From the IMG/VR virus record IMGVR_UViG_3300025699_000004: a DNA stretch of 64,000 nucleotides. One strand, 5' to 3'. The position numbers and the translations under genes were made by a program. How positions within the stretch are numbered: position 1 is the first letter of the stretch; the number at the start of each line of letters is the position of its first letter. The notes beneath the pieces are model-generated. The model made no database searches, was not told the DNA's origin, and was given only the letters and a program-made list of their open reading frames with translations. Below, one piece after another: positions 37,640 to 61,746 of the stretch. The stretch comes from a virus.

Positions 37640-40600
37640 TTAAACATCAGGTCTGCTCAGTCCGATATTAAAACAGAATTTTGTAGCCCCATTTGTACTA
37701 TTAGGCATTGTGACAGTAAGGTCATCGCCAATATTTATATTACCAGCGGATGGATTAAAACCCCCTACACAGGCTGCAAATGCAGTTGTTCCTATTCCAG
37801 CACTTTGATCTATTGACAATATATTATAATTAACTTTACTTCCGCTAATTATATGATATGTTCTATTCGCTAAAGGAAATGGAATTTCTCCACATAATTG
37901 AGTATCTATTAAGCTTGCAATTCCAGAAGCACTCGCAGGGTCCGTCTTAAAATTAGACACAAAAGAGCCCGCATTGGAACCTCTTAAATAAAAACCTCTA
38001 GCCTTTCCCCCAACAAGAGCTGTGCTGAAATCATTACTTTGTATTCCTGTTATACTTACGAAATCATTATTCCCAGCATATTCAATTATATTTCCTTTTC
38101 CATTTGCCAATGAAAATGTACCATCTTTTCCAATATATATACCTGTATTATCTGTATCTGTATAATGATTTCTAGCCGTTGAGGTTGAGACATCAAAAGT
38201 AGAAATGTAATTCTCTGTTAATTCTAATCCGCCAATTCGTCCTGCACTTCCACTTATAGTACCACTAACAACTGCATTTACTGCATACAAATCGCCATCA
38301 TTATTTACGTGAAACTTGTTTCTAACATCATCATATACAGTTCCAGGTCCTATACTTATATTTCCCTCATTATCAGCTCTAAAAAAATTGCTCTGATCGC
38401 ACTTGCCGACATTAATACTAGAACCACTTATCATTCCAGACAGAACTTTCAAGTCCCAAAATGTTGCGGTTCCATCTCCTCTTAGTTGAAACCCAGATGG
38501 TATAACATCGCAATTTTCATTACTCCTGAACCCAAAGCTTTCTATAACACTTAGTTCGGGATTAACTTCGTCTCCTAAAATTATAGTTTGTCTAGGTTCA
38601 AAATGATTAGCTGTTACAGTTCCTGCTATGTTGGCATTTTGTGCATATAAGGTTCCCTCATTTGTGACTAAAAATCTAACATCTACTATTCTCCACCAAT
38701 CTCTATCTTCTCCAGCTGCAACATGAGACCAGCCCGTATCAACCTGATAATCTAATATTGGCGATGTTAATTGAACATATCCAAATTTTTCATGCTGACC
38801 ACCTCCCTCAGTGTAGTCCAGAACTGGAGAGGTTCCCATATCATTGTAAGTGAAATAAGTAGAGGAGGTAGTTATACCTCTTATATCTTGCCCTCCATTT
38901 CCATAATTAATTTCTAAAAATGCCCCCCTGTTTATAGCGGCTTTTACTGCATCAATTTTGTCCCTGAATTGATTTTTCCCTAAAGGTAAATAATCATCTA
39001 AATTCAACTGTACATTAACTGGCTTAGCATTACCTCTTATGTGCGGTTGGTTGATAGCTCCAGCTCCTCCAGTAAAATATCCAGATATCCTAAGAGCCTG
39101 ATTTCCTATGCTAAGTTCACCATCTTCTTTAATTCTTAGCTGAGTAGATGGATCGCTACCTATAGAGATGCTTCCAGCTGTCATATCTCCTCTAATTTCA
39201 AGAGTATTAGGTTCTATATCATGACCTAAAAGCCCATTTCCTATATCTGTCCATGTGGGTTGCTTGAAATCCCCATTGCCCAGCTTCTCACCTGTCCAGA
39301 ACAGTCCCTGCTCACCCAAGGAAGGGTTCCCTATTCTTAGCATTCTATGGTCCAAATACAGCCCCTCACCGATGCCATACATATATTTAGGATCTGCCAA
39401 GCCTTTTGCATAAACATTATCGCTAACCATTCTTCCACTAGGGTTAGCTAGAATTATCGTATTTGAAGTTATTGAATCTGTTAATATTTTACTAGCTCTT
39501 ATATTTCCAAGATAAGAATCGTCAATAGCCCCCCCAGTTACATAACCTAAATTATGAGGAACTACTCCGTATTTTTGATTAACGAAAGAAGATGTTTTTT
39601 GTTTTGCGGGATCTGAAAAATAAGAATTATGAGTGTTGCTAGCTATTCCCGAAACAAAACCTATACCTGTATTATTAGATCTATCTACAGTCCTAAGGAA
39701 GTAATGGTACAGAACTTCTTGTCTAGGTTGATCGTGTATATCGCCCGCTCCTACTCCATAACCACTAAAGATCCCAGTCTCTACATCGCTATCTATAAAT
39801 GCGGTTCCTGGATTTAATATATACGAATACTCATCTTTGTTATTATCGAAATACCCACTAATATCTTGAGTCTTCCAGCAATATTTCCCCTGTGTTGAGT
39901 TTTCGTTCAGCCTTCCTGTTGGAATACCTGTTTTATAAACAACCACACTTGCTAAATCAGAATCAGCTCCATTGGGCCAATCCCATTCTAGAAAAATTTG
40001 TTTAGGCCCAGATGTTATATAAAAATTTTCGGGATTACTAGGGTTGGTGTTATCTTTTGGCGTTGTAAAGGGCCTAGGTTTAGCTACTGTATAAGCACTA
40101 TATCGTCCGTCATTCTCTTTTATTCTTGCACGGAAAAAATAATCTTCATTAGCAAGAAGGTTTGAAAACACCCCGCTGCCAGTCATTGTTGGTGGATTAA
40201 TTCCGTACTCTATATCTGCTAACTGAGAACCAACCAAAGGGCTGAATCCTAAATTTTTTGCTAGATCTACTTTGTAATGAGAATGATCATAGTTTAATTT
40301 TCCAGTAATTACATACTCTACATAAGCAAATGAAGAACCGTCGCCCTTTGTATCATTTTCTATTCCAGTTATTAATTGTATATGTTCAGGTCTTAATGGA
40401 GTAGTTTTTTGTATTTTTAATTTTTGTCCACTATGATGAGGAAGAACTTCATTTAATAATCCTCCAGGAAATGTTACTGGATCTGTATTACCAACACTAA
40501 ATAAGCCAGTGTTATTAGATGAATCCACCCCTCTTAACCAAAAATATAAATCTTTATTTTGATCTCCTCCGAAATCTCTTAATGGTATAACCTCTGATTG

Positions 40601-43600
40601 AAATTTAGATATTTGATGTATATTAGTTCCCGCAGCAACACCCGTATCATTAGCAACCCCTGTATATAATATAGTTAAATCTAAATCGTTATCAGGAGGA
40701 TTAGCCCATGATAAAAATATATTATTTGAACTTTTATTAGTTTCTTTCCAGAGATGCTGGCCAGGAGGAGATTCATCATTTAGTGCTCTTAAATCTTTAC
40801 TAACTTCTGCACTCTTGTTTCCCTGAATATCATGAGAAGTCAACCTAAAGGTATATGTCCTTCCTCCAACAGCTAAATAATCATACTGACCAGAACAAGT
40901 TACACATCCTCCGTCATCAACTCTAGGTAAAGACCTACTATATATTTCGTTATTTGTGTTATTTTGTATTTTTAAATTGTACTCTTTAAAATCTGAATGA
41001 TCGTTAAAATCTCCAGAATAAAAAGCTGTTATATATGAATTTTGCGTTCCATCATTACCCAATCTAACACTACCTGATAATATTAAATCCACTCCGCCGA
41101 ATTGCATTATAGATATATCATTACTGTTATCAGCTTCCCCAGTATTTCCAGCATGATCTAAAGCTCTTATATGAAAACTTCCATTCAAGTCGGGGCCAAA
41201 ACCCCTATTTTTGTTAAACTGGTCTAAAGGATACACCGCAAAATTAGAGCTTGATTTAATTAAGAAATCATCTTTTCCATTTGTATACAGTGGAGCTATA
41301 TCGTGTTTGCCCGTATATATTCTTGCGTGATTTAAATCTGTATCACTAGGATTATCCCAGTTAAAATGAATATTATCAAATACAATTTTTGCTCGGAAAT
41401 TAGAGCAGGCTCCAGGAGGAGTTCTGTCTCTTTCAGCCCTGAAGAACATTATTTTTTCAGGACCTTGCCCGAAACTATTATATTCAGACCATCTTAATTC
41501 ATAATATTTATCTGGATTCGCCAGCTCAAATTCTCCAGAAAGAATGTTTCCAGTTATCACGTCTTGAGATTTTGTACCAAATACAGAACACCCAGAAAGA
41601 TTACCCTTTCCAGTTTCATTCATTACCCGAGGTCTCTCTATGATATAATCTTGTTTAAAATCTCCATCTAGATAATTTGGAACCGAAAGCATTTTATTCG
41701 CCTGCCCGCCAACCACGGCTTTATCTGACCCATCGTATAAAACTTCATACTCTCCACAATCTTGAACTCCTGATATGCAATATTCTCCGTCCTGCAAGAC
41801 GCCAGGTGTTGCGGCTAAATTTCCGTAATAAGTGTCCGTAACCTCTTGAACTCTAATTCTGTATCCAGCTGAATTAGACTGTCCTTTGCTATAATATTTT
41901 CCATTCTCTTGTGTGTTGTGAAAAAAGAATTCTACCTTGGATTTATTAACTCCTTCTGTATTAACGAAACCAGTCGCTCTAACCACAAGATCCACCGTAT
42001 TTTCTTCTGGAAAACCAAAGCTTACTGGCTGCTTAATGATTTCTGGAGTTGCTGGATTTGGATCTGGACCACCATCGCCAGGAGGTGGGTCAGTCGGTTC
42101 CAGCTCAAAATCGGATTCTTTATAGATCGTATTTAGTTTTTCAACATCCTTGAACTTGTCTTGATCATACTCTAACCCAACAATTCCATAACTTCCGTCT
42201 TCATTAGATGATACAGATAATACTTTAAATTGTTTTGTCGTTACTCCTGCTCCGCACAAATAACCAGCATCCCCAGTTCCTTCAAGTATGTATATATCCC
42301 CTTCTCTTATTTTTTGAGTATTAGTGATTCTATTAGCTCCATCTCTTAAGTTTGATAAAACAGAGTCGTCTAGTAAATAATCATTAAATGTTTTTAAACC
42401 TAAGCCTAGTTTATTATTTACATAATCTCCAGTGATCCCCGTTGATAGAATTAAATCTTGAGTTTCATGTGTTAATATCTTAGCTCCAGAAGGAGTATTC
42501 TCTATGTAATTATTTAAACTAGGATTTAAAGAGGCACTAGAATCTAAATTTGTAAAAGGAAAATTTCTTAAGTTATTGTCGGCTGACCCTATTGAGTGGC
42601 CATTTCTATGTATAAAAGTTTTAAATTGCTTAGACTGTTCTTCTAAGTCTTCCCCAGGTATATTAAAACTTATCGATTGAAAATTATAATCATTTGTATC
42701 TACTGTATCGTCTAATAAAATATAATTATCGCTGGCAACATTTTTATTATTAACAACCTTCTTAACTCTTCCGCCTCCTTTGTAGCCATTTCTTATAGAG
42801 TCAGATACCTCAAAAACATAACCTGGCCTTAAATGCTCCGCAATTTTATCAGTTACGAAAGATACCGTTTCCTCTTCTTTATTTGATGTTAATAAAACCC
42901 ATCTGCCCAACCTTAAAGCTTGATCTTTTGAAGTACAACCAACGGCAGCTAATTCTTTTTCTATAATTCCATGCCTTATTATTCCTTCTGCATCTTCTAC
43001 ATATGCATATTTAGGTAAATAATTTTCTTCTTTATCTTTATAAGCAACCTTTATTGCTGTAAACCTTGTCTGCTTAGATGTTCCAGAATATTGAAAATCA
43101 CCCTGCTTTACATTTGCATTTGTAAATTTCAAACAAGGCTCAGTTATATTATCTTGAGTTATTACAATTTTATTCGCATCAAAATAAACCATTCCCTGGA
43201 AAACCGAAGCTATTTCCTGTATAGCTTTATAAGCCTCCATTCTATTCTGTATCAAAACATTACAAGAATATCTCCTCTCTTTCCTGAATCTATCAGGGTC
43301 AGTATTTGTTGCGAATTTCTTTAACTTTGAAGTGGGAACTAACTGATCGCAATATTTGGCTATCTTGTAAAGCTCAAATTTATTTATGTCGGAATCAGTT
43401 ATATATTCCCCAAGCCCAAACCTATCGTTTGTAATTAAGTCGTATAATATCCATGCTGGATTATCTGTCCACTCTAAATCGTCTTTAAATCTACCATCCC
43501 AGACCCCCACATGCCTATCTTCCACGACTGGGCCGTTTGGCCCATCCCCTGAATCCTCATAATTAGAAGGTACTTTTACTTTTTTTAATTTTAAATCAAA

Positions 43601-44551
43601 AGTTCTTCTGGGTATTTGAGAAAAGCTTTCGGCGCTCAATACGGTTCCCACATAAGCGGAATTAGGATAACTTAAATTAGATTTAGTGATTTCTGTTACT
43701 GTAGCAAGTCTGGCGGAAAATTTAGATCTAAAATTAGTAGGTTCATCTGTTAAATTCCTTATGTATATTTGTCTAGATCTTTTAGAGGAGTCTGCTCCAA
43801 ATTCAGGATCCCTTAATTTAAATAGAATATCTTCCTTATATGAAGATGTGCATACTCCAGTAAAATGAACATAAGCATGGTATTCTGTAGATACAGGGGG
43901 AATGGGTAGTATTTTTTTTGTAGATCGATGATAGTATCCCGTAATGTCTCCCCATATGTGAACCATTCCATGATTGCCCGTCAACCAACCGTCGTTCTCA
44001 GTAAAACTGCATTGCCCCAGCTCTAAAGTAACTCCAATCCAATCTACATCATGATCAATCACACTATGAGAGGTTCTGAAAACAGAAGTTTCATTACCCG
44101 CCAACATCTTTGAATTCGGCAAATTAACGTTTTTAGTGATTGTTTTAGAAGCATACGAAAAATCTTCCAACCAATAAAAGTTATCAACATCAACAATACC
44201 TGCATTACCTTGACCAGTATAAACCCCAGATTGACTTTCTTCGCCGTGCTTAAAAACTGTATTTATACTCCTGAAATTATACAAATCAGGCTTAGCCAAA
44301 TCTGTGGTTATTTTTACAGGTACATCATTTAAATATACTCCTTTTAAAATATCAGAACCGCTAACTAACCTTCCTGTCGCATCGCAAAAACCCTCCACGG
44401 GACCTTCTGATAAAAGGTCTACAGCCTTGAAGTAAGATGTAGACTCGTAAAGGTTTTTTTCATAAGGGGTAACATTACCATGTCCAGTAACAGCCCTAAA
44501 TCCAACATGAGGATTAAGTCCCGTAGCAGCGGCATTTATATAAACAGGCAT
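37640..44551 (-). CDS. J: Lambda gpJ-like tail tip/central fibre protein with fibronectin type III-like repeats
   Basis: DLLSEGPVEG, YPNSAYVG, WDGRFK...WTDNPAWILYDLITNDRFGLG, IAKYCDQLV, RRYSCN, GCTSKDQALRLGRW; repeated D.TPP....W.NP.D.DL units. Confidence 0.9.
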   Translation of the reverse strand: MPVYINAAATGLNPHVGFRAVTGHGNVTPYEKNLYESTSYFKAVDLLSEGPVEGFCDATGRLVSGSDILKGVYLNDVPVKITTDLAKPDLYNFRSINTVFKHGEESQSGVYTGQGNAGIVDVDNFYWLEDFSYASKTITKNVNLPNSKMLAGNETSVFRTSHSVIDHDVDWIGVTLELGQCSFTENDGWLTGNHGMVHIWGDITGYYHRSTKKILPIPPVSTEYHAYVHFTGVCTSSYKEDILFKLRDPEFGADSSKRSRQIYIRNLTDEPTNFRSKFSARLATVTEITKSNLSYPNSAYVGTVLSAESFSQIPRRTFDLKLKKVKVPSNYEDSGDGPNGPVVEDRHVGVWDGRFKDDLEWTDNPAWILYDLITNDRFGLGEYITDSDINKFELYKIAKYCDQLVPTSKLKKFATNTDPDRFRKERRYSCNVLIQNRMEAYKAIQEIASVFQGMVYFDANKIVITQDNITEPCLKFTNANVKQGDFQYSGTSKQTRFTAIKVAYKDKEENYLPKYAYVEDAEGIIRHGIIEKELAAVGCTSKDQALRLGRWVLLTSNKEEETVSFVTDKIAEHLRPGYVFEVSDSIRNGYKGGGRVKKVVNNKNVASDNYILLDDTVDTNDYNFQSISFNIPGEDLEEQSKQFKTFIHRNGHSIGSADNNLRNFPFTNLDSSASLNPSLNNYIENTPSGAKILTHETQDLILSTGITGDYVNNKLGLGLKTFNDYLLDDSVLSNLRDGANRITNTQKIREGDIYILEGTGDAGYLCGAGVTTKQFKVLSVSSNEDGSYGIVGLEYDQDKFKDVEKLNTIYKESDFELEPTDPPPGDGGPDPNPATPEIIKQPVSFGFPEENTVDLVVRATGFVNTEGVNKSKVEFFFHNTQENGKYYSKGQSNSAGYRIRVQEVTDTYYGNLAATPGVLQDGEYCISGVQDCGEYEVLYDGSDKAVVGGQANKMLSVPNYLDGDFKQDYIIERPRVMNETGKGNLSGCSVFGTKSQDVITGNILSGEFELANPDKYYELRWSEYNSFGQGPEKIMFFRAERDRTPPGACSNFRAKIVFDNIHFNWDNPSDTDLNHARIYTGKHDIAPLYTNGKDDFLIKSSSNFAVYPLDQFNKNRGFGPDLNGSFHIRALDHAGNTGEADNSNDISIMQFGGVDLILSGSVRLGNDGTQNSYITAFYSGDFNDHSDFKEYNLKIQNNTNNEIYSRSLPRVDDGGCVTCSGQYDYLAVGGRTYTFRLTSHDIQGNKSAEVSKDLRALNDESPPGQHLWKETNKSSNNIFLSWANPPDNDLDLTILYTGVANDTGVAAGTNIHQISKFQSEVIPLRDFGGDQNKDLYFWLRGVDSSNNTGLFSVGNTDPVTFPGGLLNEVLPHHSGQKLKIQKTTPLRPEHIQLITGIENDTKGDGSSFAYVEYVITGKLNYDHSHYKVDLAKNLGFSPLVGSQLADIEYGINPPTMTGSGVFSNLLANEDYFFRARIKENDGRYSAYTVAKPRPFTTPKDNTNPSNPENFYITSGPKQIFLEWDWPNGADSDLASVVVYKTGIPTGRLNENSTQGKYCWKTQDISGYFDNNKDEYSYILNPGTAFIDSDVETGIFSGYGVGAGDIHDQPRQEVLYHYFLRTVDRSNNTGIGFVSGIASNTHNSYFSDPAKQKTSSFVNQKYGVVPHNLGYVTGGAIDDSYLGNIRASKILTDSITSNTIILANPSGRMVSDNVYAKGLADPKYMYGIGEGLYLDHRMLRIGNPSLGEQGLFWTGEKLGNGDFKQPTWTDIGNGLLGHDIEPNTLEIRGDMTAGSISIGSDPSTQLRIKEDGELSIGNQALRISGYFTGGAGAINQPHIRGNAKPVNVQLNLDDYLPLGKNQFRDKIDAVKAAINRGAFLEINYGNGGQDIRGITTSSTYFTYNDMGTSPVLDYTEGGGQHEKFGYVQLTSPILDYQVDTGWSHVAAGEDRDWWRIVDVRFLVTNEGTLYAQNANIAGTVTANHFEPRQTIILGDEVNPELSVIESFGFRSNENCDVIPSGFQLRGDGTATFWDLKVLSGMISGSSINVGKCDQSNFFRADNEGNISIGPGTVYDDVRNKFHVNNDGDLYAVNAVVSGTISGSAGRIGGLELTENYISTFDVSTSTARNHYTDTDNTGIYIGKDGTFSLANGKGNIIEYAGNNDFVSITGIQSNDFSTALVGGKARGFYLRGSNAGSFVSNFKTDPASASGIASLIDTQLCGEIPFPLANRTYHIISGSKVNYNILSIDQSAGIGTTAFAACVGGFNPSAGNINIGDDLTVTMPNSTNGATKFCFNIGLSRPDV

Positions 44552-49971: not shown

Positions 49972-52900
49972 TTACCTCAAGGAACCGCCTACTCTTTTTT
50001 CTTGTTGTATTACTTGCAATACCGCAGCTTTTACTTTTTCTGCAAATTTCTTTGGGTTTTCTGGAGAACTTCCGCCTGAAGAGGTTTTTGCTGACCCAGA
50101 AGAATCTACATTAACATTGATATTAACTTCGTTGTTATTATTAACACCTTGAGCGCTTGATCCTGACGAACCAGTATTTAAAGTTCCATTGTTTATTTTA
50201 GACATCGTGGAGCTTCCGTACTTGTTAACGGCAGAAGGATTCATTACGTATTCTCCTCCCTGAAGCATCGCTGGAACTTTCCCCCCAGAAGAGTTATATA
50301 TAACTCTACCGCTCTTACTTATGCTTGTTTTAATCCCTGACTCTTGAGCCGCAATTGCTGCCTGAGTCGGATTTTGTTTAGCCATTCTGTTTATAAACGA
50401 CTTGGCCGAATATACATCATCTGGATTTTGGTAGACCTTACCAATAGAGTTTCCCTTTGTGTTGACAAACCCTTTTTTATCCATTTGTGATGTGACCCCT
50501 TTTCTTGCCCTGGATTTTGAAAAATCTGTATTCTTATACCAATCCATTCCCTTTGATAAAGCAACACCTCCCGCTATACCTAACAATGCACCCTGCCAAG
50601 CTTTTCTTTTTTGAGTGCGAGCCCTTTGGTAATTCTCATCTCTGCTTTTCCTTTGCTTAACGGTCTGAAGGTCTTGCCTGAATTGATTTTCCTGCTCGTC
50701 AAAATACTCTTGAATAGTTCTGTCGTTAGCTCTTGCGTAACCACTGAGCCTAGAGTCCATTCCTGTATCCGCGCTTTTAGTCTTGTAAGTAGTTATATCT
50801 CCGTATTTACTTTCATCTACCACGGCTTCTCTAACAGCTGCTCTTGGAGAACTCATTGATAATGATACGGGCCCTCCTTTGGCATATCCAGATATTTCTC
50901 CATTATTTAATTTATTTAAAAAATCAGATCCGTATCTTTGAACAGCGCTTTTCTTGATAACATATTCTCCGCCCATCAGCATTGCTGGAACATCATCTCG
51001 AACACCACTACCTCCTGAGACATAACCGCCTTCAGCTTTCCCTAAACCAAACAAACCTTGCATTCCTCCCACCAACCTACTAGAAGCACTTTGCAAAAAT
51101 GCTTGTTGTACCATTTGCAACAAAGATATTCCAATTTCTTTTATTTTTCCACTTAAATCGTCCGCTTTATTTAAAGCTAAAGTCATGGCGCTAGTAAGCC
51201 CATCCCTAAATGCAAAAGGAAGATCCTGCCCAAGCTTTACATAAATAGATTCTGCCTGAGAATCCAAAGCGGCAAATCCTTGACCAAGGCCTAGATTCAT
51301 GTTTGTTCTAAACTCATTTCCAAATCCCCCATCCCTAGGAGTGACTCTTTCCATTTGCCCTGTCAATTCAACAATCTGTTCCTCCAAGCTAACCATTGCT
51401 TCTGCAGCTTTCCTCCTTTCTTCTGAACCTATAGCAGAATCACTAAAATTTTTCGTTTCGCTTACGAAATCTTTGTTCATTTGTATAAGAGAAGATCTTT
51501 GTTTTACAGTTCCTATGCTTTGCCTTCCTGCGGCAAGCCTTGCATTTTGCACCTCCAGCCTACTTGCTCCTGGATCATTTTGCAAAACCTTAAAAGCTTT
51601 TTCCGCTTCGGCTTGCTTGGCTATCCTGTCAATGCTTGATATTCTTCCCGCCGAAACATTATCCATGTCTCTTAGGTCGTTCAATCTATTAATTGATCCT
51701 CTTGATCCAGACATCACCCTGAAATCAGCCACTTTATTTTTTAAATTTGTGTTTTTTAGTGTGAGATTGTTTGCCTTCTTAAATGCGTCTTCCGCTATAA
51801 TCAAAGCTTCAATACCTTCTATAGCAGTATCTATTTGAAGTTCCAACTGTTCCCCAGAATCTCCACCTTTAGCAGACATTGTCTTTAGCTCTTTTAATTT
51901 ATTCTTTGAATTTTCAAGCCCCATTGAATCAAGTGAAATTGCCTCGACTTTTCCTGCAAAAGCATCGGTACTCTTAAAATTAATTCCGCCATTGGGGTTC
52001 ATCATCTCCCTGGTTACTTTATCAACTTCCGCTTGAACATCTTTAAGAGTTATAACCTTTTGATTTGCTGGATCGGTTGACACTCGTTCAACTTGTTTTT
52101 GAGCGTCTCTAAGTTTTTTCTTATTTCTTAATACTTCTTCTCGTGCTGACGTATCAATCACTCTACTTGCATTTAATTTTGCTTGAGTATTTTTTAGATC
52201 TTTTTCAGCTTTATCCATTTCTGTCTTGAGGTCTGTTACTCTTCTTGGCCCGATTGCCTGACCCTTACCCGCTTCGTATCTTTCCTCTGCTTTTGCAAAC
52301 GCTTGCTTGTCTACATTTAACATATCTCCCAAAAATTGTTTCCTGCTTCCAGTATCGTTAGCTTTTTTTTGGGATGAATTCAATTCTTTTTGAATATTAG
52401 TTCTTTTTGAGATGGCTTCCTTTTTCTTAAGTAATCCAGTTTCATTTAATCCTAAATTTATTTTCTTATCCAGATTGGGGGGATTTTTTCCAGTCAGAGG
52501 CTCTAGTAAATCTTTAACAGCACTTCCTAAATTATTTAAAGCAAAAATCACTTTTTGGTCACTTAATAACCTTCTTATTTCCATCTTTGCTCTGGCCGCT
52601 AATTCTTTACCCTGGATCGATTCTTGCTCTTTAAATATTTTTTCTTGAATATCAGTTTGTCTTCTATTCTCTTGCCTAGTTGAGCCAGATCTAAATATAC
52701 CATCTTTTTCAAAATTTAAATTTGCTTGAGTTAACTTCGATTTAGCTTGAGCCCTAGCTATCGTATTATCTTCTTTCGATGCATTAAAAGACATCCTCAT
52801 TGATTGAGTCGTCATTAATTCATTAATTCTTGCTGAAATAATATTTTGAGATTCTTGCAATATAAGAGCTTCTTGTTGAACTTTTATTTTTTCTAGTTCT

Positions 52901-55900
52901 AATTCTTTTTGTCTGTCAATTACAGAAATTATATCTTGTATAACTTTAATAGTTGCATCGTCAGTTTGTTTCTCAAAATCTAAATTAAACTCAGCTCCCT
53001 GGGCGAACTTTCCGCCCACACCTGCTTTTGCTGCGTCCGCCAGTTTGATAGTTAATTTATTTATCTGTTCATCGGAAAGAGCGACTAAGTCCCTAAGCTC
53101 GCTCATGTCATCTCTGTTCTTAAGATTATTCCTTATGCCATTGGGAGTCCCTATAAATGATTTCCGCATCTTATTGATCTGTTCGAGCCTAGCTTCAGGA
53201 GTCTCCGCTCCACCCAGAATATCCATCGTTCCAGTTATTTTTCCAGAATTCAACTGATCTCTTAATACTTGAAACCCTTCAGTTGCTACTTTATTAAGTA
53301 TCGCTGCTTGCTGGGTAATTTGTAAATTAGTTCCTTTTAATTTTTGCTGAAACTTTGTCGCAAAACCTGCTCTAGAATTTAAGTCATTAGCTTCGATTTG
53401 AGATGATCTCAACGCTTCAGTCGAAGATATTGTTCTTCTTGACATTCTTTTTTGAATATCAGAACCTTGGAATCCCGAAAATTGAGACGAAAATCTTATT
53501 GCACTATTTTGTCTTTGTCCAACACCAGCTGATCTTATCGACTTTATTTGAGCTTCTTGTTTTAAATTAGCTATAGTCGTAGCAAAAGCTTTATCTAAAT
53601 TAAATATCCTTCCAGATAACTTTTCACTCTCTTTCCTCATTTTAAGATTAGCTTCTACAGTTTTTTCTGTTGATTTTAACAGAGCATCGAATGATTGATC
53701 TCCTTTGTTGTAGGCCGCTATTAAAGATTGAAACTGCCTATCTGTTAGTGCCGCAGCTTCAGCTAGCTTGCCAAGATGTTGAGCGGCATCAGCTTCCTGG
53801 TCTCTTATTATTTCTAGTTCAGTTTTAGCGATTTCCTGTTCTCCATATTGTCCCACCGCATACCCCGCAGATGCGCCCGCAGCCATCGTTGCTCCTACCG
53901 CAGTGAGACCCAAGGAGGCTCCAAAAGTAGGTATGGCTGCTAGTGCGCCAACTACTGCGAGACCTATGCCCGCACCTATTCCTAGTCCCCATCCGCCCAA
54001 TCCTTCGAAAGTTCCTACATCTCCACTCGCTCTTCTTTTTATACCTTCTAATTCTTCTGGAGTTCTCAACAAACCTTTAGAGCTTAATTCTTTTCTTTGA
54101 TTTCTTATTCCAGCTATAGCGTCCTTAAATTTATCCTCTTTAAGTAAGCCTGAAGAAATTTGTTGGGCGACAATATTACCAAAAGCTAAACCTTGAGACT
54201 TTGAGTCTTTATTTTTTGTTGCAACTGAAAAATTTTGAATTGATGCGTCTATGCTTAATCTATCTTGAAGCCTTTTGTTCAAATTTTTCATTGCGTCAGC
54301 ATTGCCCATAGCATTAGACATTTCGTCAAAAACTTCGACATCAGCAATCTGTCCCAATGTGGCATTTATAGCCGCGTCAATTCTTTTCAACCCTTGTTCA
54401 TCTCCTTGCCCAAACGCTGTAGCTCTTGTGCCCATTAATCCTTCTAATTGAGTTCCAGCCTGAACACTTCTACTTAAAAGTTGCAATTGCTTTTCTTGTT
54501 TTTGAACTATTTCATCTATAGAAAGAGTCATCTTCTTTGATGAAGAGACAAAACCTATTGCTGCTCCAACTAGCATTCCAGGTAAACCGAAAAGAGCTCC
54601 TATACCTGCCCCCATCATTGTTGAGGACATTCTTTCTTTATCTCCACCCTCTGTTATTTCAAAATTACCGCTTTGCTGATTAAAAGTAGCTCTTTCATCC
54701 CTCGCTCTTGTTGGAGAAACCATTCCAGCTAACATAGGTAATGCAAAAGATAGGCCTAGCCCAAGCTGGCCTCCCATACCGCCCATCTTTCCAAAACTAC
54801 CAAGAGCCCCTTTACCTCTTGTAACTAACCCTCCCGCTCTATTAGCTATACCTGACCCCATCCCACCTTGACCAGACATTCCTCCAAAAAAACCAGCTCT
54901 TATATTATTACCTCTAGCTAAGTGTGATTGAGCTTTTGCCGCAAATCCAGAAGGCTGTGCTCTTTGCTGCTGGGCAGCGTTAACGACCTCTTTCCTTACC
55001 GCCTCCAACCTCTTGAAAGCTGCGGGATTCGCCGCTATTCTTGCAGCTTCTTTTTGAAGCCCTTTAGTTAAACTTTTGATTTGTTTTTTATTACCGTCTG
55101 CAACAGCTTTTTCTAAGGATTTTAAATCTCTTGTAAATCCAGTAGAGGTTGTTCTTACGCCTTTTTGGTCTGTAGTTAATTTCCCGAATTCGCCCTTCAT
55201 TAAACCTCCTCTAGCCAGAACACCCGAAGAAGAAGTGACTCCTGCTGAAGCTGCGAATTTAGAAAAATCACTAGCTGCCCCTCTGCCTCCAGCCATCATT
55301 ACTGAATTCATCGCTTTAGTTCCCATGCCTTCGGTATTAACTCCTTTTTGCCCTAAGTAATCCCGAAGAAATACTTTATTTAAATCTGACTTAGAATACC
55401 CTTTTGTTCCAAACACCCTATCGGAAACCTTGTTCATAGCCGCTTGATTAGCTATTCCACTGCCCAATTGCTGGCCCAAGAATTTAGGCGAATTCATAGA
55501 TGCTTTTGCTGATTTGTCTAAAGTTTTATTCAGGTTCTGTAAAGCTCTTAATGTAGTATTATCCCCAGAGGCTTTAGCTGTAACCATTTTTTCCTTCAAC
55601 ATGTCTTCGTTAAGCTTTCCTCCGCTCATAACGCTAGACATTAAAGGGCCAACTCTGCTATCTTTCATCATTGCTTGAGCAGCATCGTTTCTAAATAACT
55701 GCCTAGCAAAACCTTTATTTCTGTCGCTTAAATTTCCCCTGGATGATTGAGTCCTGACTTCAGCCTCTTTAGCTGATTTAGCTGTATTACCAAATGAAAT
55801 AGCTGCTTTTTGCATTTCGGCTTTTAATTTTTTAGAGCTTGCAGTAGCAGCATCTATTGCTTGGCTGGCATTATAAAAAGATTTCTCCATAGATTTCAAA

Positions 55901-58900
55901 CCCATAGATTCATTAGTCTTATAAGCCATTCTTTTGTTCGCCAAAAAATCTTGAGCCGTTAGTGGAGTTGCATAATTTGGAATCACTCCTTTCGATGAAC
56001 CCTGTCTTGGATTTAATCTCCCATGCAATTTTCTAGCATTCGCTAGCTTTCCGCCTTCTTGCTCGTTATTAACCACAGCAAGCCCAGGATTGGTAAGGCT
56101 TTTTAGAGATGGAGCTGTTACAACTTTAGGAGTTACGCCAAAAGATGCTTCTCTCGATACAGCATTAGACACGGCGTTTGTGAATTCAGGTTTTGTAGAT
56201 AATACATCTCTTGCTCCTGGACCAAATAAGCTATAATTAGGTATATGCCCGTCGCCTTTCAATCCAAACTTCCTTCTTGTTCTAGCGCTTAACGGCTGGC
56301 TAAATAAATTTCTATCAAAACCAGAGCCGCGCGGAGCACCTGTTTGTTTTTTCTTCTCGAAAAGGTCTTTATAAATCTTGTTTATTCTATCTGACTCAAC
56401 CCCCGCTAAAGTCGCAGCCCGCCTAGCTGAATAATTTTCTTTCTCCATTAAATCTTGAGCTTTTATAGAAGCGATCCCGCCTTTACCCAATGCTGAGCCC
56501 AATACAGCGTCTCGTGCCGACATCCCAGTTGAGTTGCCAAAAGAAGCTCCTTGATTTATTCCTATTATATCTCGCAATAATCCAGAATCTACAGCTCGAC
56601 GTGTAATAGCCTCATCCCCTCTAAATCTTCCGCTTGTCGCACCAAATTTATTATTTACAGTCTTAAGATTACCATCTTTATCTATATATTGCGACCCAAG
56701 GGCAAGCCCTCCTGATCCCCCTGGAGCTCTTGGATTGCCTGGGTTACCCAGTCTTGATAAAGCAGTTAGGACGTCAGGGTTTGATCTGGAAAGGTTGTGG
56801 AAAAGTCTTTTGCGCTTATCTAAATTGCTTAAATTTCTTTCTGGATCAAAAGGCAATCCAAGTGGGATCTTAGGTGCCATAGCTTCATTTTGACGAATAA
56901 GATGCGCCATTGGTATGTTCATTCTAAAAGAAGGATCAAGAACATGGCCACTTCCCCTCGTTTGTTTAAAAGCTTTTTGTATATACCCTTGAACAGACCC
57001 GCTCTTTGATCCAGGAGACGATGCTCCAGCAGTTAAAAAGTCTTCTCTTATTAAACTTAACCTGTCTTTCTTTTTTTGCCCAGGAATTAGGCCATCATCA
57101 ATACTTTTTACTCTTGGTATCATTCCATGCTTAGACATGAAATGTTTTTTCTCATCTGCTGTTAAGGCGGATTCTATTCCTATGGAAGTAGATTTTCCAG
57201 TGATATATCTAAAAAAAGATTTCATAACATCAGGGTTCTGCAGGATTTCTCCCTGCCTTTTATTGCTTAAATAATCTAATCCTAATGTATTAGAACTTCC
57301 TTTTGGGAAATTTGACTGAAAATCCTTCATTGACATTCCAGGATAAGATCCTTTAAAGTCAAAAATCCCCTCCTTGACATACATTTTCATAGCCTGTTTC
57401 AATTTCTGCTCAGGCATAAACTCTAAAGCTTTCAGAAATGATATTCGATCCCCCGTTCTTGGCATTGACATGGGGAGATTTTTATCATAATGGAAAGCTG
57501 AATAATTTGGAACGAATCCAGAATTTGCCATATTTGGATCAACTTTTAAATGCTTTCCTTGAGATACGACACTTTGAATTCTATTTAACTTTAGTTTTCT
57601 AAATGCATCAGCCCCTTCACCTGTTGATCCGATCCACATAGAGCGGGTGCCTGTAGCTTTATCCATTTCTCCATAAGAAACATAATTGCCAGGAGGAGGT
57701 GCTCCTTTTTTATATTTATTTACTCCCCATCTAGCATTTTTATAAGTTAAATCGTTGCCAGCTTTAGATGTATAGTTTAAAGATTTAAATAAGCCAGTTG
57801 TTAAGATATTATCCAACTCCTTCATTCCTATCGTATCATCAAACTTATTTGAATGTATTTTGCCTTGCCCTATACTTTTAATTTTATTCGCATTTAACCT
57901 CATTCCAAAATTAGGAACGAACCCTTCGCTAGTGCTCATGTCCCATTTTCCTGGTTTGTCTATTCTCAAACTGCCAAACATATTTTTTGGTATTAAAGTA
58001 TGAGGAAAAAGATGAGGAGGTATCGGTCTATCAGGTTTCATATAGCCAGATTTCCAATACATCATGGCCGCTTTCTCCATCATTGAAGGGCTAAGGTCTC
58101 TAAATCTTTTGCCTACAGATCTTCCTGATGAAACTTTTGGAGTAAAATACTTTTTAGGCCCAGGATTTCTCAAACTTGCATTCATCTCATCAAGCCAAGT
58201 ATTCATAGCTTTATCATCCGAATTCATTTGAGAAGGTAAACCTTTCCCCCTTCTTGCGAAATTAGGAATATGCCCGCCCGACATTCCTATTTTTTCTAAC
58301 ATTGCTTTGGGTACATTATTAGCTGATCCAAAATTATTAGGACCTCCTTTTACTCTTAACATTCCTATTGCGACTTTTTGCAAATCATCAGGAAGGTCTC
58401 TTATGCGTAAGTTTCCTCTATGTTTCCCCTTCGCTTTTAAGTCCGAGCCCACCTTGTTGTCTTTCCTCGTCTTATTCATCCTTAAGATATCGTCGGCCAG
58501 TGTAAGGCCCAAGACAGAGGCGGGAAGGGCTCCTCCAAGCACGGCAGATATTAAGTCTATATGGCTTGTTGGGTTTTGAAATACATCTAAAACTCCCTTC
58601 CCTAATTTTCCGCCCATCTCAAGAGCTTTAGGTCCATATTTACCTACAGCCCCCATGATTTGATCTTGAAATTTATACCCTAAACCTCCCCCTCCTCCAT
58701 AAAGAGTTGCTCTAGGAAATTTCTTCATAAGATCAAAACCTTTGCCTAATCCATGTTTTCCAGCTTCAAAAATGTTGGTATATGCATTATACCCCCCCTT
58801 TGCAGTGCCAATAATACCTCTCCTTATAAGGTCGCCGCCTTTATCAGCTATATTATACCCCCCTTTTAACAAAGAGCCTATATCTTTAAAAGGTGTGCTT

Positions 58901-61746
58901 ATTAATTTTCCTGCAGCGCCGAGTCCTTTACCCAAGAAATCTCTATCTGATGTTTTTGGCTTCTGCCTTCTAAAAAGATTTCCTAATCCGTAATTAGGAA
59001 CATGACCTTGATTTGATATCTTATATGTATAATTCTCGCCTCCCCACATTCCATTTTTTTCACCGATATCTTTTCGGAATTGTAGATCTCCAGCCTTTTC
59101 CACTTTAAATTTCTTTCCCTTGGCTATGCTATCAACAACTCTCATTGCAGAAATAGAAGTTCCTATATCTCCATATAATCCAGTGTATCCATTTTTTCTT
59201 GAATATTCAGCCATATGCTCGTACAAATCTTTTCCGTAACCTTTTCCTCTTAAAGATGGGTTGGCTTCTGAAGTCATTATTACCTGTAATGCTCTTTTGT
59301 TTGGATCTTTAAAGTCGGCGATATCTATAACATGAGATGTTGCAAAATTTTTCCCACCCACACTGGACTCAAAATATACTTGCTTAGGAGGTCCGTACTC
59401 ACTTGGCCCATCATCTCTAACCTGGGTTTTATATTTAGCTGGAATTCTTGCGCTTGCATAATTAGGAACATAACCCCCGCTGTAAGGCATTGGCAATTTC
59501 CTCGAAGACCTTCTAGCTCCGTTTAATGACTCCACCATTCCATAAACTAAATCTCCGCTACCTCCCCAAGACTTAGGAACATTTGCTCCGAAATTTCTAA
59601 GGGCAGCGTTAACATCATGCCTCATTTGGTCTCCCTTTCCCACTATAAAATTTTTGTAAATTTTCTCCCTAATGGAATTCATTTCAGTGCCCGTTGCCAT
59701 AGCTGGGCCATACGAGTGCCAAGTGTCCTTTAATTGTTTGTTGGGAGCTACCTGAAGACCCATGGCTGTTTTTCCTCCATAAATCAATCCTCTTGCTATA
59801 TTAGCGGCACTTTCTGGAGAGTACCTCATGGCGGCATAGTTAGGAATGTGTCCCTGATTTGCATACGGATTAAACCCATGAACTTTTTTAAATGCTTTTG
59901 TATAATTTTTTCCAGCATTACTTCTTTTAGGAGGCATTATTGCTGGCTGCTTCATCCCAGGGAAAGCTCTTACCGATTCAGCTGTATTATAAACAACCCT
60001 ACCCTGACCAGGCATGTTCATCGATTTCACAGCTCCAGGATTATAGCCAGCTGATTTAGCTCCTGCTCTTTCTGCGGAAGCCTCTTCTTTAGACGGATAA
60101 CCCTTAACAAGATTAAAGTTAGGAATGTGCCCTTCGCTCCTTGTTCTTTTTAAATTTTGATTAAACCCAGCTCTCATTACCGCTGGCCCTATAGCCGCAG
60201 CTGCAGCTGCAATTTTTTGCTGTTCCATTGATTGAGCTCTCAAAATCCCCAATATAGTTTTTTCTTGCGCGGCTCGATTTCCTTCTTGCGATAATATTTT
60301 TTGTTGAAGAGCTGAATTCTCAGAAAGTACAGCAACAATTGTTTTTTGTATTTCTTTTTGTTTTTGAGCTACCGTTGTGATTCCCAAAAGCTCTTTCATA
60401 CTACCCGCTAAAAATGAAAATGTTTTTCCAAAAAGTTTAACTAACACACCTAAGAAACTAAGCATGACTGGGCCAGCCAACACATTTCCGATACCCTTGA
60501 TTAACCCTCTTCCTATATCAGCCCCGAAACCTTCACCTGCTGATAAAAATTCTGCAGCGTTACCAAAACCATCTTTAATTATATTTAGAAAGAATCTTAT
60601 GGGCTCATCAAAAGCTAGTTTACCCATTACTGCACCCAATTGTTCTATAGAAGTAACTGTTTGAGAAGTTAAAGCCGCTATAGTCTGATTAAGAAGTGCA
60701 TTTTTTCTATAAGCTTCATCTGTAGCTTGACTTGCTATTTTTGTAGCTCTAGCTAAAATACTATTCTCTTCAGATAAATCTTTGATTGCCGCTTTTAAAA
60801 TATTGATTTGAAAAACTCCACCTACTTGCTCGGCAACAGCCGCTTTCGTTGTGTCTGCTAATGTGTCGTATGTTTTTGATAAATTTTCTAAGACTCTTAT
60901 GGCTGGTAGCGTATTTCCAGCTATATCTCTAACTGCTATGCCAAGCTCTTCAAGCCTTTGGATGGTACTCGCTCTTTGCACCCTAGTAAATATAGTCTTA
61001 AAACTATTACCTATAACTTTACCTCCTCTAGCAGTTTGTTGTTGAGCTGCGGTAACGGCGCCTAACAGCTGATCGAAACTAACTCCAGCATCTTGAGCTA
61101 CAGCACCAGCTCTTGCTATACCATCAATTAAATCTTCTGTACTAACTGCAAATTGAACATCAACAGCAGCCATCTTACTTAATATTTTTGTCGAATCTAA
61201 TCCAGCTTTATTAAATGTATTAATTGCCGCAGTTAAACCAGAAACCGCATTTGCTGCATCTAAACCAGTTAGCCTAGTTAAAATCAGGGCATCGTTAGTT
61301 CTTTTTAAGGTTTCTTCCATTGATAAACCCTGCCTTGCCAATTCAGTAGCCGCAGTAGCTACAGTTGAAAAGCTTTGAGCTGTATTTTTAGCCACTTTGA
61401 ACAAACCTCTGCTCATTTCGTCAAGTTCTTTATTGGTTACTCCCATAACCACATTAATTTCAGCTAATTTCCTCTCGACTTCTACTGTAGATTTTATCAA
61501 AGCGGAGAAAGCTCGTTGTACACCCTGTATAATTCCAACAGATGCACCAAACGCTAAAACTCTGGCATTAGATGCATCTAGTGATTTATTAAATTCACTT
61601 ACAGACCCCGTTATTTTACCAAGAGGCCTTGTAAACTGTTTGTCGTTTACAGACAGGTTTAACCCTCCCCTTCTATTTACGCTACTTACAGCTTTTCTAA
61701 TAGAAGCTTCTAGGCCCGTTTGAACTGTTTGAACTTTTAATGGCAT
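49972..61746 (-). CDS. Tail tape measure protein (3,924 aa) with an internal array of motif-delimited cassettes
   Basis: N-terminal TP901-type TMP core (TAATELARQGLS...AVSTEDL...GNSFKTIFTR), Gly/Ala hydrophobic segments and C-terminal GGYVSGGSGVRDDVPAML..GEYV; lies between the tube and tip genes. Confidence 0.93.
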   Translation of the reverse strand: MPLKVQTVQTGLEASIRKAVSSVNRRGGLNLSVNDKQFTRPLGKITGSVSEFNKSLDASNARVLAFGASVGIIQGVQRAFSALIKSTVEVERKLAEINVVMGVTNKELDEMSRGLFKVAKNTAQSFSTVATAATELARQGLSMEETLKRTNDALILTRLTGLDAANAVSGLTAAINTFNKAGLDSTKILSKMAAVDVQFAVSTEDLIDGIARAGAVAQDAGVSFDQLLGAVTAAQQQTARGGKVIGNSFKTIFTRVQRASTIQRLEELGIAVRDIAGNTLPAIRVLENLSKTYDTLADTTKAAVAEQVGGVFQINILKAAIKDLSEENSILARATKIASQATDEAYRKNALLNQTIAALTSQTVTSIEQLGAVMGKLAFDEPIRFFLNIIKDGFGNAAEFLSAGEGFGADIGRGLIKGIGNVLAGPVMLSFLGVLVKLFGKTFSFLAGSMKELLGITTVAQKQKEIQKTIVAVLSENSALQQKILSQEGNRAAQEKTILGILRAQSMEQQKIAAAAAAIGPAVMRAGFNQNLKRTRSEGHIPNFNLVKGYPSKEEASAERAGAKSAGYNPGAVKSMNMPGQGRVVYNTAESVRAFPGMKQPAIMPPKRSNAGKNYTKAFKKVHGFNPYANQGHIPNYAAMRYSPESAANIARGLIYGGKTAMGLQVAPNKQLKDTWHSYGPAMATGTEMNSIREKIYKNFIVGKGDQMRHDVNAALRNFGANVPKSWGGSGDLVYGMVESLNGARRSSRKLPMPYSGGYVPNYASARIPAKYKTQVRDDGPSEYGPPKQVYFESSVGGKNFATSHVIDIADFKDPNKRALQVIMTSEANPSLRGKGYGKDLYEHMAEYSRKNGYTGLYGDIGTSISAMRVVDSIAKGKKFKVEKAGDLQFRKDIGEKNGMWGGENYTYKISNQGHVPNYGLGNLFRRQKPKTSDRDFLGKGLGAAGKLISTPFKDIGSLLKGGYNIADKGGDLIRRGIIGTAKGGYNAYTNIFEAGKHGLGKGFDLMKKFPRATLYGGGGGLGYKFQDQIMGAVGKYGPKALEMGGKLGKGVLDVFQNPTSHIDLISAVLGGALPASVLGLTLADDILRMNKTRKDNKVGSDLKAKGKHRGNLRIRDLPDDLQKVAIGMLRVKGGPNNFGSANNVPKAMLEKIGMSGGHIPNFARRGKGLPSQMNSDDKAMNTWLDEMNASLRNPGPKKYFTPKVSSGRSVGKRFRDLSPSMMEKAAMMYWKSGYMKPDRPIPPHLFPHTLIPKNMFGSLRIDKPGKWDMSTSEGFVPNFGMRLNANKIKSIGQGKIHSNKFDDTIGMKELDNILTTGLFKSLNYTSKAGNDLTYKNARWGVNKYKKGAPPPGNYVSYGEMDKATGTRSMWIGSTGEGADAFRKLKLNRIQSVVSQGKHLKVDPNMANSGFVPNYSAFHYDKNLPMSMPRTGDRISFLKALEFMPEQKLKQAMKMYVKEGIFDFKGSYPGMSMKDFQSNFPKGSSNTLGLDYLSNKRQGEILQNPDVMKSFFRYITGKSTSIGIESALTADEKKHFMSKHGMIPRVKSIDDGLIPGQKKKDRLSLIREDFLTAGASSPGSKSGSVQGYIQKAFKQTRGSGHVLDPSFRMNIPMAHLIRQNEAMAPKIPLGLPFDPERNLSNLDKRKRLFHNLSRSNPDVLTALSRLGNPGNPRAPGGSGGLALGSQYIDKDGNLKTVNNKFGATSGRFRGDEAITRRAVDSGLLRDIIGINQGASFGNSTGMSARDAVLGSALGKGGIASIKAQDLMEKENYSARRAATLAGVESDRINKIYKDLFEKKKQTGAPRGSGFDRNLFSQPLSARTRRKFGLKGDGHIPNYSLFGPGARDVLSTKPEFTNAVSNAVSREASFGVTPKVVTAPSLKSLTNPGLAVVNNEQEGGKLANARKLHGRLNPRQGSSKGVIPNYATPLTAQDFLANKRMAYKTNESMGLKSMEKSFYNASQAIDAATASSKKLKAEMQKAAISFGNTAKSAKEAEVRTQSSRGNLSDRNKGFARQLFRNDAAQAMMKDSRVGPLMSSVMSGGKLNEDMLKEKMVTAKASGDNTTLRALQNLNKTLDKSAKASMNSPKFLGQQLGSGIANQAAMNKVSDRVFGTKGYSKSDLNKVFLRDYLGQKGVNTEGMGTKAMNSVMMAGGRGAASDFSKFAASAGVTSSSGVLARGGLMKGEFGKLTTDQKGVRTTSTGFTRDLKSLEKAVADGNKKQIKSLTKGLQKEAARIAANPAAFKRLEAVRKEVVNAAQQQRAQPSGFAAKAQSHLARGNNIRAGFFGGMSGQGGMGSGIANRAGGLVTRGKGALGSFGKMGGMGGQLGLGLSFALPMLAGMVSPTRARDERATFNQQSGNFEITEGGDKERMSSTMMGAGIGALFGLPGMLVGAAIGFVSSSKKMTLSIDEIVQKQEKQLQLLSRSVQAGTQLEGLMGTRATAFGQGDEQGLKRIDAAINATLGQIADVEVFDEMSNAMGNADAMKNLNKRLQDRLSIDASIQNFSVATKNKDSKSQGLAFGNIVAQQISSGLLKEDKFKDAIAGIRNQRKELSSKGLLRTPEELEGIKRRASGDVGTFEGLGGWGLGIGAGIGLAVVGALAAIPTFGASLGLTAVGATMAAGASAGYAVGQYGEQEIAKTELEIIRDQEADAAQHLGKLAEAAALTDRQFQSLIAAYNKGDQSFDALLKSTEKTVEANLKMRKESEKLSGRIFNLDKAFATTIANLKQEAQIKSIRSAGVGQRQNSAIRFSSQFSGFQGSDIQKRMSRRTISSTEALRSSQIEANDLNSRAGFATKFQQKLKGTNLQITQQAAILNKVATEGFQVLRDQLNSGKITGTMDILGGAETPEARLEQINKMRKSFIGTPNGIRNNLKNRDDMSELRDLVALSDEQINKLTIKLADAAKAGVGGKFAQGAEFNLDFEKQTDDATIKVIQDIISVIDRQKELELEKIKVQQEALILQESQNIISARINELMTTQSMRMSFNASKEDNTIARAQAKSKLTQANLNFEKDGIFRSGSTRQENRRQTDIQEKIFKEQESIQGKELAARAKMEIRRLLSDQKVIFALNNLGSAVKDLLEPLTGKNPPNLDKKINLGLNETGLLKKKEAISKRTNIQKELNSSQKKANDTGSRKQFLGDMLNVDKQAFAKAEERYEAGKGQAIGPRRVTDLKTEMDKAEKDLKNTQAKLNASRVIDTSAREEVLRNKKKLRDAQKQVERVSTDPANQKVITLKDVQAEVDKVTREMMNPNGGINFKSTDAFAGKVEAISLDSMGLENSKNKLKELKTMSAKGGDSGEQLELQIDTAIEGIEALIIAEDAFKKANNLTLKNTNLKNKVADFRVMSGSRGSINRLNDLRDMDNVSAGRISSIDRIAKQAEAEKAFKVLQNDPGASRLEVQNARLAAGRQSIGTVKQRSSLIQMNKDFVSETKNFSDSAIGSEERRKAAEAMVSLEEQIVELTGQMERVTPRDGGFGNEFRTNMNLGLGQGFAALDSQAESIYVKLGQDLPFAFRDGLTSAMTLALNKADDLSGKIKEIGISLLQMVQQAFLQSASSRLVGGMQGLFGLGKAEGGYVSGGSGVRDDVPAMLMGGEYVIKKSAVQRYGSDFLNKLNNGEISGYAKGGPVSLSMSSPRAAVREAVVDESKYGDITTYKTKSADTGMDSRLSGYARANDRTIQEYFDEQENQFRQDLQTVKQRKSRDENYQRARTQKRKAWQGALLGIAGGVALSKGMDWYKNTDFSKSRARKGVTSQMDKKGFVNTKGNSIGKVYQNPDDVYSAKSFINRMAKQNPTQAAIAAQESGIKTSISKSGRVIYNSSGGKVPAMLQGGEYVMNPSAVNKYGSSTMSKINNGTLNTGSSGSSAQGVNNNNEVNINVNVDSSGSAKTSSGGSSPENPKKFAEKVKAAVLQVIQQEKRVGGSLR
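55972..60132 (-). repeat. Nine dispersed G-[HYFV]-[IV]-P-N-[FY] peptide motifs in the TMP
   Basis: 60115-60132 GHIPNF; 59836-59853 GHIPNY; 59458-59475 GYVPNY; 58990-59007 GHVPNY; 58258-58275 GHIPNF; 57907-57924 GFVPNF; 57502-57519 GFVPNY; 56233-56250 GHIPNY; 55972-55989 GVIPNY. Confidence 0.92.

Follow-up and report, generated by a model that had tools for sequence, protein, structure and literature searches.

The stretch of viral DNA analyzed here (IMG/VR virus record IMGVR_UViG_3300025699_000004; 64,000 nucleotides, referred to below as the window) carries a giant tape measure protein (TMP) gene, P0001, and within this gene lies a small cassette with the predicted fold of a GNAT acetyltransferase, fenced on both sides by copies of a repeated hexapeptide (Table 1). 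Six PHROG tail length tape measure families matched the open reading frame (ORF) (best E 1.9e-51), and the features of the TMP class were found together: a PF10145/PHROG TMP domain, a place upstream of the distal-tail genes, and hydrophobic segments. The genes downstream encode minor tail proteins, a tail assembly protein and a 2,303-amino-acid (aa) J-like central fibre. Inserted in the N-terminal third of the ruler is an array of cassettes with 5.8% Pro and 12.3% Gly, as compared with 1.1–1.5% Pro in the flanking ruler parts. The GNAT cassette is the third of the eight modules of this array and is situated between hexapeptides 3 and 4 of nine. Both the ORF translation and the hexapeptide positions agree exactly with the placement and boundaries given in a preliminary description of this DNA.

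Table 1. Features of the TMP gene and of the GNAT cassette (coordinates in the window; pLDDT, predicted local distance difference test).
Feature	Residues (aa)	Coordinates	Strand	Basis or remark
TMP gene P0001	3,924 aa (3,924 codons)	49972..61746	-	single ORF
PhageMin_Tail domain of the TMP	118-310	60817..61395	-	Pfam, E 5.5e-25
Cassette array, 8 modules fenced by 9 G-x-[IV]-P-N-[FY] hexapeptides	539-1925	55972..60132	-	motif positions
Upstream boundary hexapeptide GYVPNY	758-763	59458..59475	-	pLDDT < 50 in model
GNAT-fold cassette, 150 residues	764-913	59008..59457	-	homology, conservation, predicted fold
Modelled fold core, β1-β2-β3-β4-α3-β5-α4-β6-β7, no α1-α2	770-911	59014..59439	-	AlphaFold2, DSSP
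Motif A pyrophosphate-binding loop R833-G-K-G836-Y-G838 (β4-α3)	833-838	59233..59250	-	R, G, Y, G invariant
β5-α4 (motif B region), invariant G859, D860, T863, S864, M868, S873, K876	856-877	59116..59181	-	
Downstream boundary hexapeptide GHVPNY	914-919	58990..59007	-	pLDDT < 50 in model
Gly-rich hydrophobic, transmembrane-like segments, C-terminal to the array	2328-2346 and 2375-2403	54538..54765	-	Kyte-Doolittle
Third hydrophobic, transmembrane-like segment	2582-2619	53890..54003	-	Kyte-Doolittle

A phmmer search of 1.84 billion representatives matched the cassette to 22 proteins. The strong matches (E 1e-39 to 1e-91) came from other giant TMPs (3,231–3,778 aa) or from fragments of such proteins; they contain the same cassette, and most of them also bear the hexapeptide. 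The weaker matches, P0014 and P0017 to P0022 (E 2.4e-9 to 4.9e-4), pass the Pfam GNAT (PF00583) thresholds and are referred to here as certified GNATs. Another protein, P0016 (E 7e-7), was discarded as spurious, being repetitive, carrying scattered unrelated Pfam matches and scoring zero against the family profile. Comparison by hhalign of alignment A2 (13 cassette sequences, IMG/VR and metagenome loci included, with identity down to 38%) with alignment A3, which contains certified GNATs, gave a probability of 98.2% (E 5.8e-14, 84 columns), and a cassette-family profile run on the set of phmmer hits recovered the GNAT repeats of the certified proteins at domain E-values of 1e-7 to 1e-14. The nearest clusters of the language-model protein atlas consist of small viral proteins, with PF00583 present in 13–62% of their members.

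Conservation within the cassette family is concentrated in the central part of the domain. Alignment A2 has 18 invariant columns (R833, G836, Y837, G838, L841, Y842, M845, G853, L857, G859, D860, T863, S864, M868, S873, K876, L888 and G914), 16 of which lie in β4-α3-β5-α4; the exceptions are L888 and G914, the latter being the first Gly of the downstream hexapeptide. The motif A loop, which reads N829-P-S-L-R833-G-K-G836-Y-G838 in context (59221–59253 encodes LRGKGYGKDLY), also retains its R, G, Y and G without exception in alignment A4. The bare pattern [RQ]xxGx[GA] occurs in the TMP at chance level (8 sites versus 9.1±3.0 in 500 shuffles), and we consider the motif signal to be real because of this family conservation and not because of the pattern itself. 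Three Pfam families (Acetyltransf_1, Acetyltransf_CG and Acetyltransf_7) match the motif A region, the second-best match of the cassette being PF14542 (Acetyltransf_CG) at a sub-threshold 18.8 bits against a 30-bit cut-off. Among close relatives of the cassette, the ratio of non-synonymous to synonymous substitution rates (dN/dS) was 0.10–0.30; the cassette is under purifying selection.

AlphaFold2 applied to alignment A2 (pLDDT 70.9; predicted template-modelling score 0.72) produced a model in which DSSP assigned strands to residues 13–20, 32–39, 42–53, 61–68, 99–103, 124–127 and 149–154 and helices to residues 80–94 and 104–120 (query numbering). The preliminary description had assigned RGKGYG to motif A, the stretch ending in GLYGD to a β-strand and SISAMRVVDSI to the helix of motif B. 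In the model the first of these lies between strand 61–68 and helix 80–94, the second corresponds to strand 99–103 and the third to helix 104–120, so all three placements were correct. The two flanking hexapeptides appear to be flexible linkers outside the fold because of their low pLDDT. When the model was searched against the PDB with Foldseek, 87 matches were obtained at E≤1e-3, and among the matches listed all were GNATs or the acetyl-CoA-binding domain of Mycobacterium tuberculosis ICL2 (CoA, coenzyme A). VIA-align against 48,161 representative chains placed members of the GNAT superfamily at every one of the top 50 ranks (Z 8.3–9.8, 101–131 residues aligned), examples being 3lod, 6edw, 1y9k and the RimI structure 5isv. 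A second model, built for a cassette with ~40% identity (L022; pLDDT 63.8), reproduced the core through α4 without confident modelling of β6-β7; its top 50 matches were again all GNATs (Z 6.6–8.6) and included the YjdJ structure 5i0c and 1xmt (Z 7.6–7.7). The BFVD search yielded viral GNATs, with ART-PolyVal and RadC polyvalent proteins among them. Thus, structure prediction of residues ~764–913 returned the GNAT fold in two models, and together with the phmmer matches and the hhalign probability this bears out the proposal of an acetyltransferase-like domain. As judged from both sequence comparison and modelling, we conclude that the cassette truly belongs to the GNAT superfamily (Pfam clan Acetyltrans, CL0257) as a minimal form with a seven-stranded mixed sheet, α3, α4 and an intact acyl-CoA pyrophosphate-binding loop, and we regard its fold and homology as established with near certainty.

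The distribution of the cassette was examined by splitting 14 related TMPs or TMP fragments at the hexapeptide and clustering the resulting modules. Thirteen related giant TMPs or TMP fragments have the same architecture but differ in module order. The first module (81–87 aa) is constant wherever the start of an array is present, and most complete arrays share an 81-aa last module; the modules other than the first, the last and the GNAT vary among arrays. The GNAT module is found exactly once per complete array, always bounded by hexapeptides, in slot 2, 3, 4, 5 or 6, and alone among the eight modules of this TMP it has a detectable homologue in 10 of the 10 TMPs compared (40–90% identity). 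Most of the eight modules are mutually unrelated, and a Pfam scan of them matched no family besides the acetyltransferase. There is no second copy of the GNAT domain in any frame of the window. The GC content of the cassette (37.3%) and that of its third codon positions (0.26) fall inside the range of the remaining TMP gene, giving no sign of recent foreign origin in base composition. Given one copy per array, a homologue in every TMP compared and an ordinary composition, the cassette has long been a core passenger of this TMP clade and was not captured recently.

One relative illustrates the mobility of the modules. In IMGVR_UViG_3300031851_000186 (L006, 4853–17272, + strand), a cassette 86% identical to the present one occupies slot 6 (aa 1723–1872 of a 4,140-codon frame) and not slot 3, so that module order shifts even among close relatives. 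The boundary hexapeptides themselves finish in Pro-Asn-Phe/Tyr in all nine cases. An Asn before an aromatic residue recalls the sites at which some viral capsid proteins cleave themselves in an Asn-dependent manner. Because the codons of the hexapeptide vary from copy to copy, its DNA forms no long repeat.

Outside TMPs, sequence comparison identifies the GNAT repeats of phage polyvalent proteins as the closest relatives of the cassette. The two groups share a signature consisting of R-G-K-G-x-G, L-Y, a Gly-Tyr that precedes β5, G-D or S-D following that strand, and S-x-x-A-x-R-V. P0014 contains five tandem GNATs, P0019 has two GNAT repeats joined to a Zeta toxin, and P0018 combines a methyltransferase with three GNATs and a weak ART-PolyVal match (E 0.0053). 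P0017 and P0020 (843 and 1,090 aa) have an N-terminal mCpol (minimal CRISPR polymerase) domain with two or three GNAT repeats, P0017 carrying DUF5661 in addition, and P0021 and P0022 are solo forms of 151–185 aa. Polyvalent proteins have been described as containing two GNAT families, one ART-associated and the other associated with type IV secretion systems (T4SS), both placed in the RimI-like clade and predicted to act as protein modifiers that are injected with the DNA (Iyer, Burroughs, Anand, de Souza and Aravind 2017, PMC5512222); TMPs are not mentioned in that work. A search meant to link P0018 with the uncultured Mediterranean phage protein of Iyer et al. yielded only a 5% methyltransferase match to another record.

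Stand-alone ORFs of 177–189 aa on marine viral contigs (L014, 9680–10213, + strand; L015, L024, L037, L064 and L065) have motif A and a G-T-S-x-D-A-x-R-V-W helix in common with the TMP cassette. Their Pfam GNAT score is sub-threshold (19.3 bits) and they have a weak PHROG acetyltransferase match; they could be solo forms of the cassette. A 539-aa ORF of IMGVR_UViG_3300015360_001190 (L013, 2213–3829, + strand) has a GNAT of the same subfamily (24 bits with Acetyltransf_1; domain E 6e-9 with the family profile) fused to a type IB topoisomerase (Topoisom_I, E 1.2e-19; Top1B_N_bact).

Several observations weigh against the presence of a working acyltransferase that reaches a host cell. With respect to the domain assignment, the Pfam Acetyltransf_1 match is narrowly sub-threshold (19.0 versus 20.7 bits, E 0.0017) and spans ~29 residues of motif A only. 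HMMER searches of PDB sequences, with either the single sequence or the profile, ranked acetyltransferases first but at E-values of about 0.2–1.5, which are not significant; the second profile match, an unrelated glutathione S-transferase, was rejected. Confidence in the model is moderate, and query residues 129–147 are unmodelled. With respect to the active site, HMMER alignment to 1y9k places Val871 at the conserved α4 Tyr, which is the general acid in many GNATs, and hhalign places Gln821 at the β4 Glu of P0021, one of the nearest certified GNATs; at least 90% of cassette-family members keep each of these residues. There is no α1-α2 arm, its place between β1 and β2 being taken by 11 residues of variable length and low confidence. 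Finally, a tail-tube lumen of ~4 nm offers little space for a folded domain of 150 aa, of which each of several TMP copies would carry one.

A non-GNAT module in which a helix follows a glycine-rich loop could resemble a GNAT by chance, and both the chance-level frequency of the bare motif and the sub-threshold Pfam scores would fit such a coincidence. However, the phmmer matches, the hhalign probability, the two all-GNAT lists of top 50 structures and the language-model neighbours contradict it, and we consider it very improbable. The residues at the active site raise a different possibility, that of a non-catalytic or weakly active domain. A GNAT-fold pseudoenzyme might bind CoA or acyl-CoA, or nothing, without transferring an acyl group, and serve as a sensor of the cytoplasm, an ejection trigger, a folded spacer or a plug. 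Besides Val871, Gln821 and the missing acceptor-site arm, this explanation draws on the structural comparisons, in which the tied best matches include the C-terminal domains of M. tuberculosis ICL2 (6edw, Z 9.6; best Foldseek TM-score of 0.56–0.57) and Rv1916 (8g8k, Z 9.4), both of which sense acetyl-CoA without catalysis. The match to ICL2 is nevertheless unspecific, because Z-scores within 1 of each other are ties. Many active GNATs lack both the Tyr and the Glu, and the β4 position is not diagnostic because it varies among the polyvalent GNAT repeats themselves. The α1-α2 arm usually shapes the acceptor site, but it is variable in the GNAT superfamily and absent in minimal GNATs. In addition, three invariant residues located where β5 ends and α4 begins, near the predicted thioester site (D860, T863 and S864), are candidate catalytic substitutes, and the strictly invariant pyrophosphate loop and low dN/dS (0.1–0.3) fit a function that depends on a ligand. 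Catalysis is not assured, with the arm missing and Val and Gln at the usual Tyr and Glu positions; even so, we modestly favor an active transferase and regard a pseudoenzyme as unlikely.

If the cassette is active, the cell in which it works has to be considered. An active GNAT could operate in the producing cell, either acetylating lysines of the TMP or tail at assembly or N-acetylating a precursor for a putative glycan-decoration island. Acetyl-CoA is present where the TMP is made, the cassette region is rich in lysine (9.7%), and the ORF list includes a putative long glycan-synthesis operon in the same window. Yet an assembly enzyme does not require insertion into a virion protein or retention in every array amid swapped neighbours, and the nearest relatives outside TMPs occur beside ART, Zeta-toxin and mCpol domains, a context of conflict and not of assembly or glycan synthesis. 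We therefore regard action in the producing cell as quite improbable. A GNAT requires acyl-CoA, which is cytoplasmic, and must hence work in the cytoplasm; for this reason an injected acyltransferase acting on a host macromolecule is the simplest reading.

In the mechanism that we propose, the TMP would be expelled through the envelope at infection, leaving the tube tip-first, so that its hydrophobic segments would insert into the inner membrane and its N-terminal third would follow, next to the DNA. The GNAT module would then reach the cytoplasm, the only compartment with acetyl-CoA. Ahead of any phage gene expression, it could acylate a host macromolecule there (probably a protein) and so may aid takeover or blunt defence. 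The transmembrane-like segments lie C-terminal to the array, as expected for tip-first exit and membrane insertion of the TMP. An injected enzyme is plausible in view of the polyvalent-protein relatives (PMC5512222) and of the virion RNA polymerase fused to the TMP of phage P23-45 (PMC10770324). We infer CoA binding, catalysis, the class of substrate, delivery and release from the TMP, and we place the reading as a whole, a minimal GNAT carried in a TMP, delivered to the cytoplasm and acylating a host macromolecule, just on the probable side of even. The preliminary description had named host proteins, tRNA or defence factors as possible targets; the evidence gathered here contained no pointer specifically to tRNA or defence factors. 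Assignment as a tRNA-acetylating toxin of the AtaT/TacT type was not adopted, AtaT (6gtp) standing at rank 43 with a Z-score of 8.4 that ties with dozens of other GNATs; moreover, a domain lying within a TMP has no definable antitoxin-like partner.

A more far-reaching version of this scheme would make the TMP a segmented polyprotein. The hexapeptides would serve as release sites, cut by Asn-dependent self-cleavage at N|F/Y or by a protease, and the array would enter the cell as a train of free effectors, with the GNAT as the wagon kept throughout the clade and acetylating its host target within seconds of adsorption. We regard this version as doubtful. If it were true, it would be the first case of a siphophage tail delivering a post-translational modifier.

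The remainder of the TMP gene and its surroundings showed several further features. Hydrophobic segments were located by a Kyte-Doolittle scan (19-residue window, mean > 1.4), which in addition to those of Table 1 detected transmembrane-like segments at aa 414–447, immediately ahead of the cassette array, and at aa 1062–1084 (58495–58563, - strand), within the 238-aa cassette 4. Near the C-terminus of the TMP the motif V-P-A-M-L-x-G-G-E-Y-V occurs twice, at aa 3586–3596 and 3824–3834 (50959–50991 and 50245–50277, - strand). The J-like central tail fibre (37640–44551, - strand) matches PHROG 31 (E 3.5e-125) across its first ~640 aa, and its long C-terminal part is without a family match. No cultured relatives were found among 50,697 phage records by megablast of the TMP gene or tblastn of the cassette. 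The TMP N-terminal domain matched only generic TMPs of cultured phages, at identities below 27%, the best match being SPbeta YomI, a TMP annotated as a transglycosylase.

TMPs are already known as rulers and channel formers, and cell-wall hydrolases form part of some of them; an RNA polymerase has been demonstrated in one TMP, and GNATs are known from head-packaged polyvalent proteins. In the literature searched, no report linked a GNAT or acetyltransferase domain with a TMP. The concept presented here thus joins two known things, the GNATs of polyvalent proteins and the enzymes fused to TMPs. If it is true, host modification by virion-delivered proteins would come to include the tail lumen of giant, uncultured siphophages of marine type, and the hexapeptide-fenced cassettes would offer a natural modular scaffold with which to study, or borrow, protein delivery via the phage tail.

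Comparison with known systems shows where the cassette resembles its relatives and where it departs from them. Like the minimal GNATs of the Acetyltransf_CG/YjdJ type (PF14542; 5i0c, 1xmt), it has a reduced topology without the full N-terminal arm, but it retains strand β1, and its C-terminal β6-β7 region is longer. Like the polyvalent GNATs (PMC5512222), it is a small GNAT placed among unrelated modules in one large virion-associated polypeptide. Its carrier, however, is a TMP of the tail lumen and not a head protein linked to MuF or the portal or a T4SS substrate: the protein has a PhageMin_Tail domain and tail-gene neighbours, and neither a head-packaging (MuF/portal) nor a T4SS context was found. 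The modules of the present array are also set apart by their fixed hexapeptide.

Among TMPs, the muralytic domains (lytic transglycosylase, M23 peptidase and Rpf-like motifs) are similarly catalytic folds inserted in the ruler and delivered at the tail tip, but their substrate is the peptidoglycan of the periplasm or cell wall, whereas the GNAT would act in the cytoplasm. TMP-like scaffolds in tail-like tubes are also found in the Sle1-type effectors of contractile injection systems, which are described as related to TMPs and as having exchangeable functional domains for cytoplasmic or membrane targets (Nagakubo et al. 2026, PMC13277306). Those effectors differ in being the cargo of a bacterial contractile injection system and in having a C-terminal functional domain, and the abstract of that study describes no GNAT. 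The closest parallel in position is gp96 of Thermus phage P23-45, a TMP of 5,002 aa with a virion RNA polymerase as its N-terminal part; the presence of gp96 in the virion and its transcription of pre-early genes were shown experimentally, and it was proposed that the polymerase remains in association with the pore that the TMP forms (Chaban et al. 2024, PMC10770324). In gp96, as predicted for the TMP of the window, an enzyme that acts in the cytoplasm occupies the N-terminal part of a giant TMP upstream of the membrane segments, with the active site at aa 779–783 there and the GNAT at aa 764–913 here. The enzymes differ, one being a two-barrel RNA polymerase and the other a GNAT, and we claim no sequence relation between them; likewise, gp96 has one large fusion, whereas the present TMP has small, shuffled cassettes arrayed with a repeated linker. 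The P23-45 protein thus sets a direct precedent for placing an enzyme that acts in the cytoplasm at this relative position of a giant TMP.

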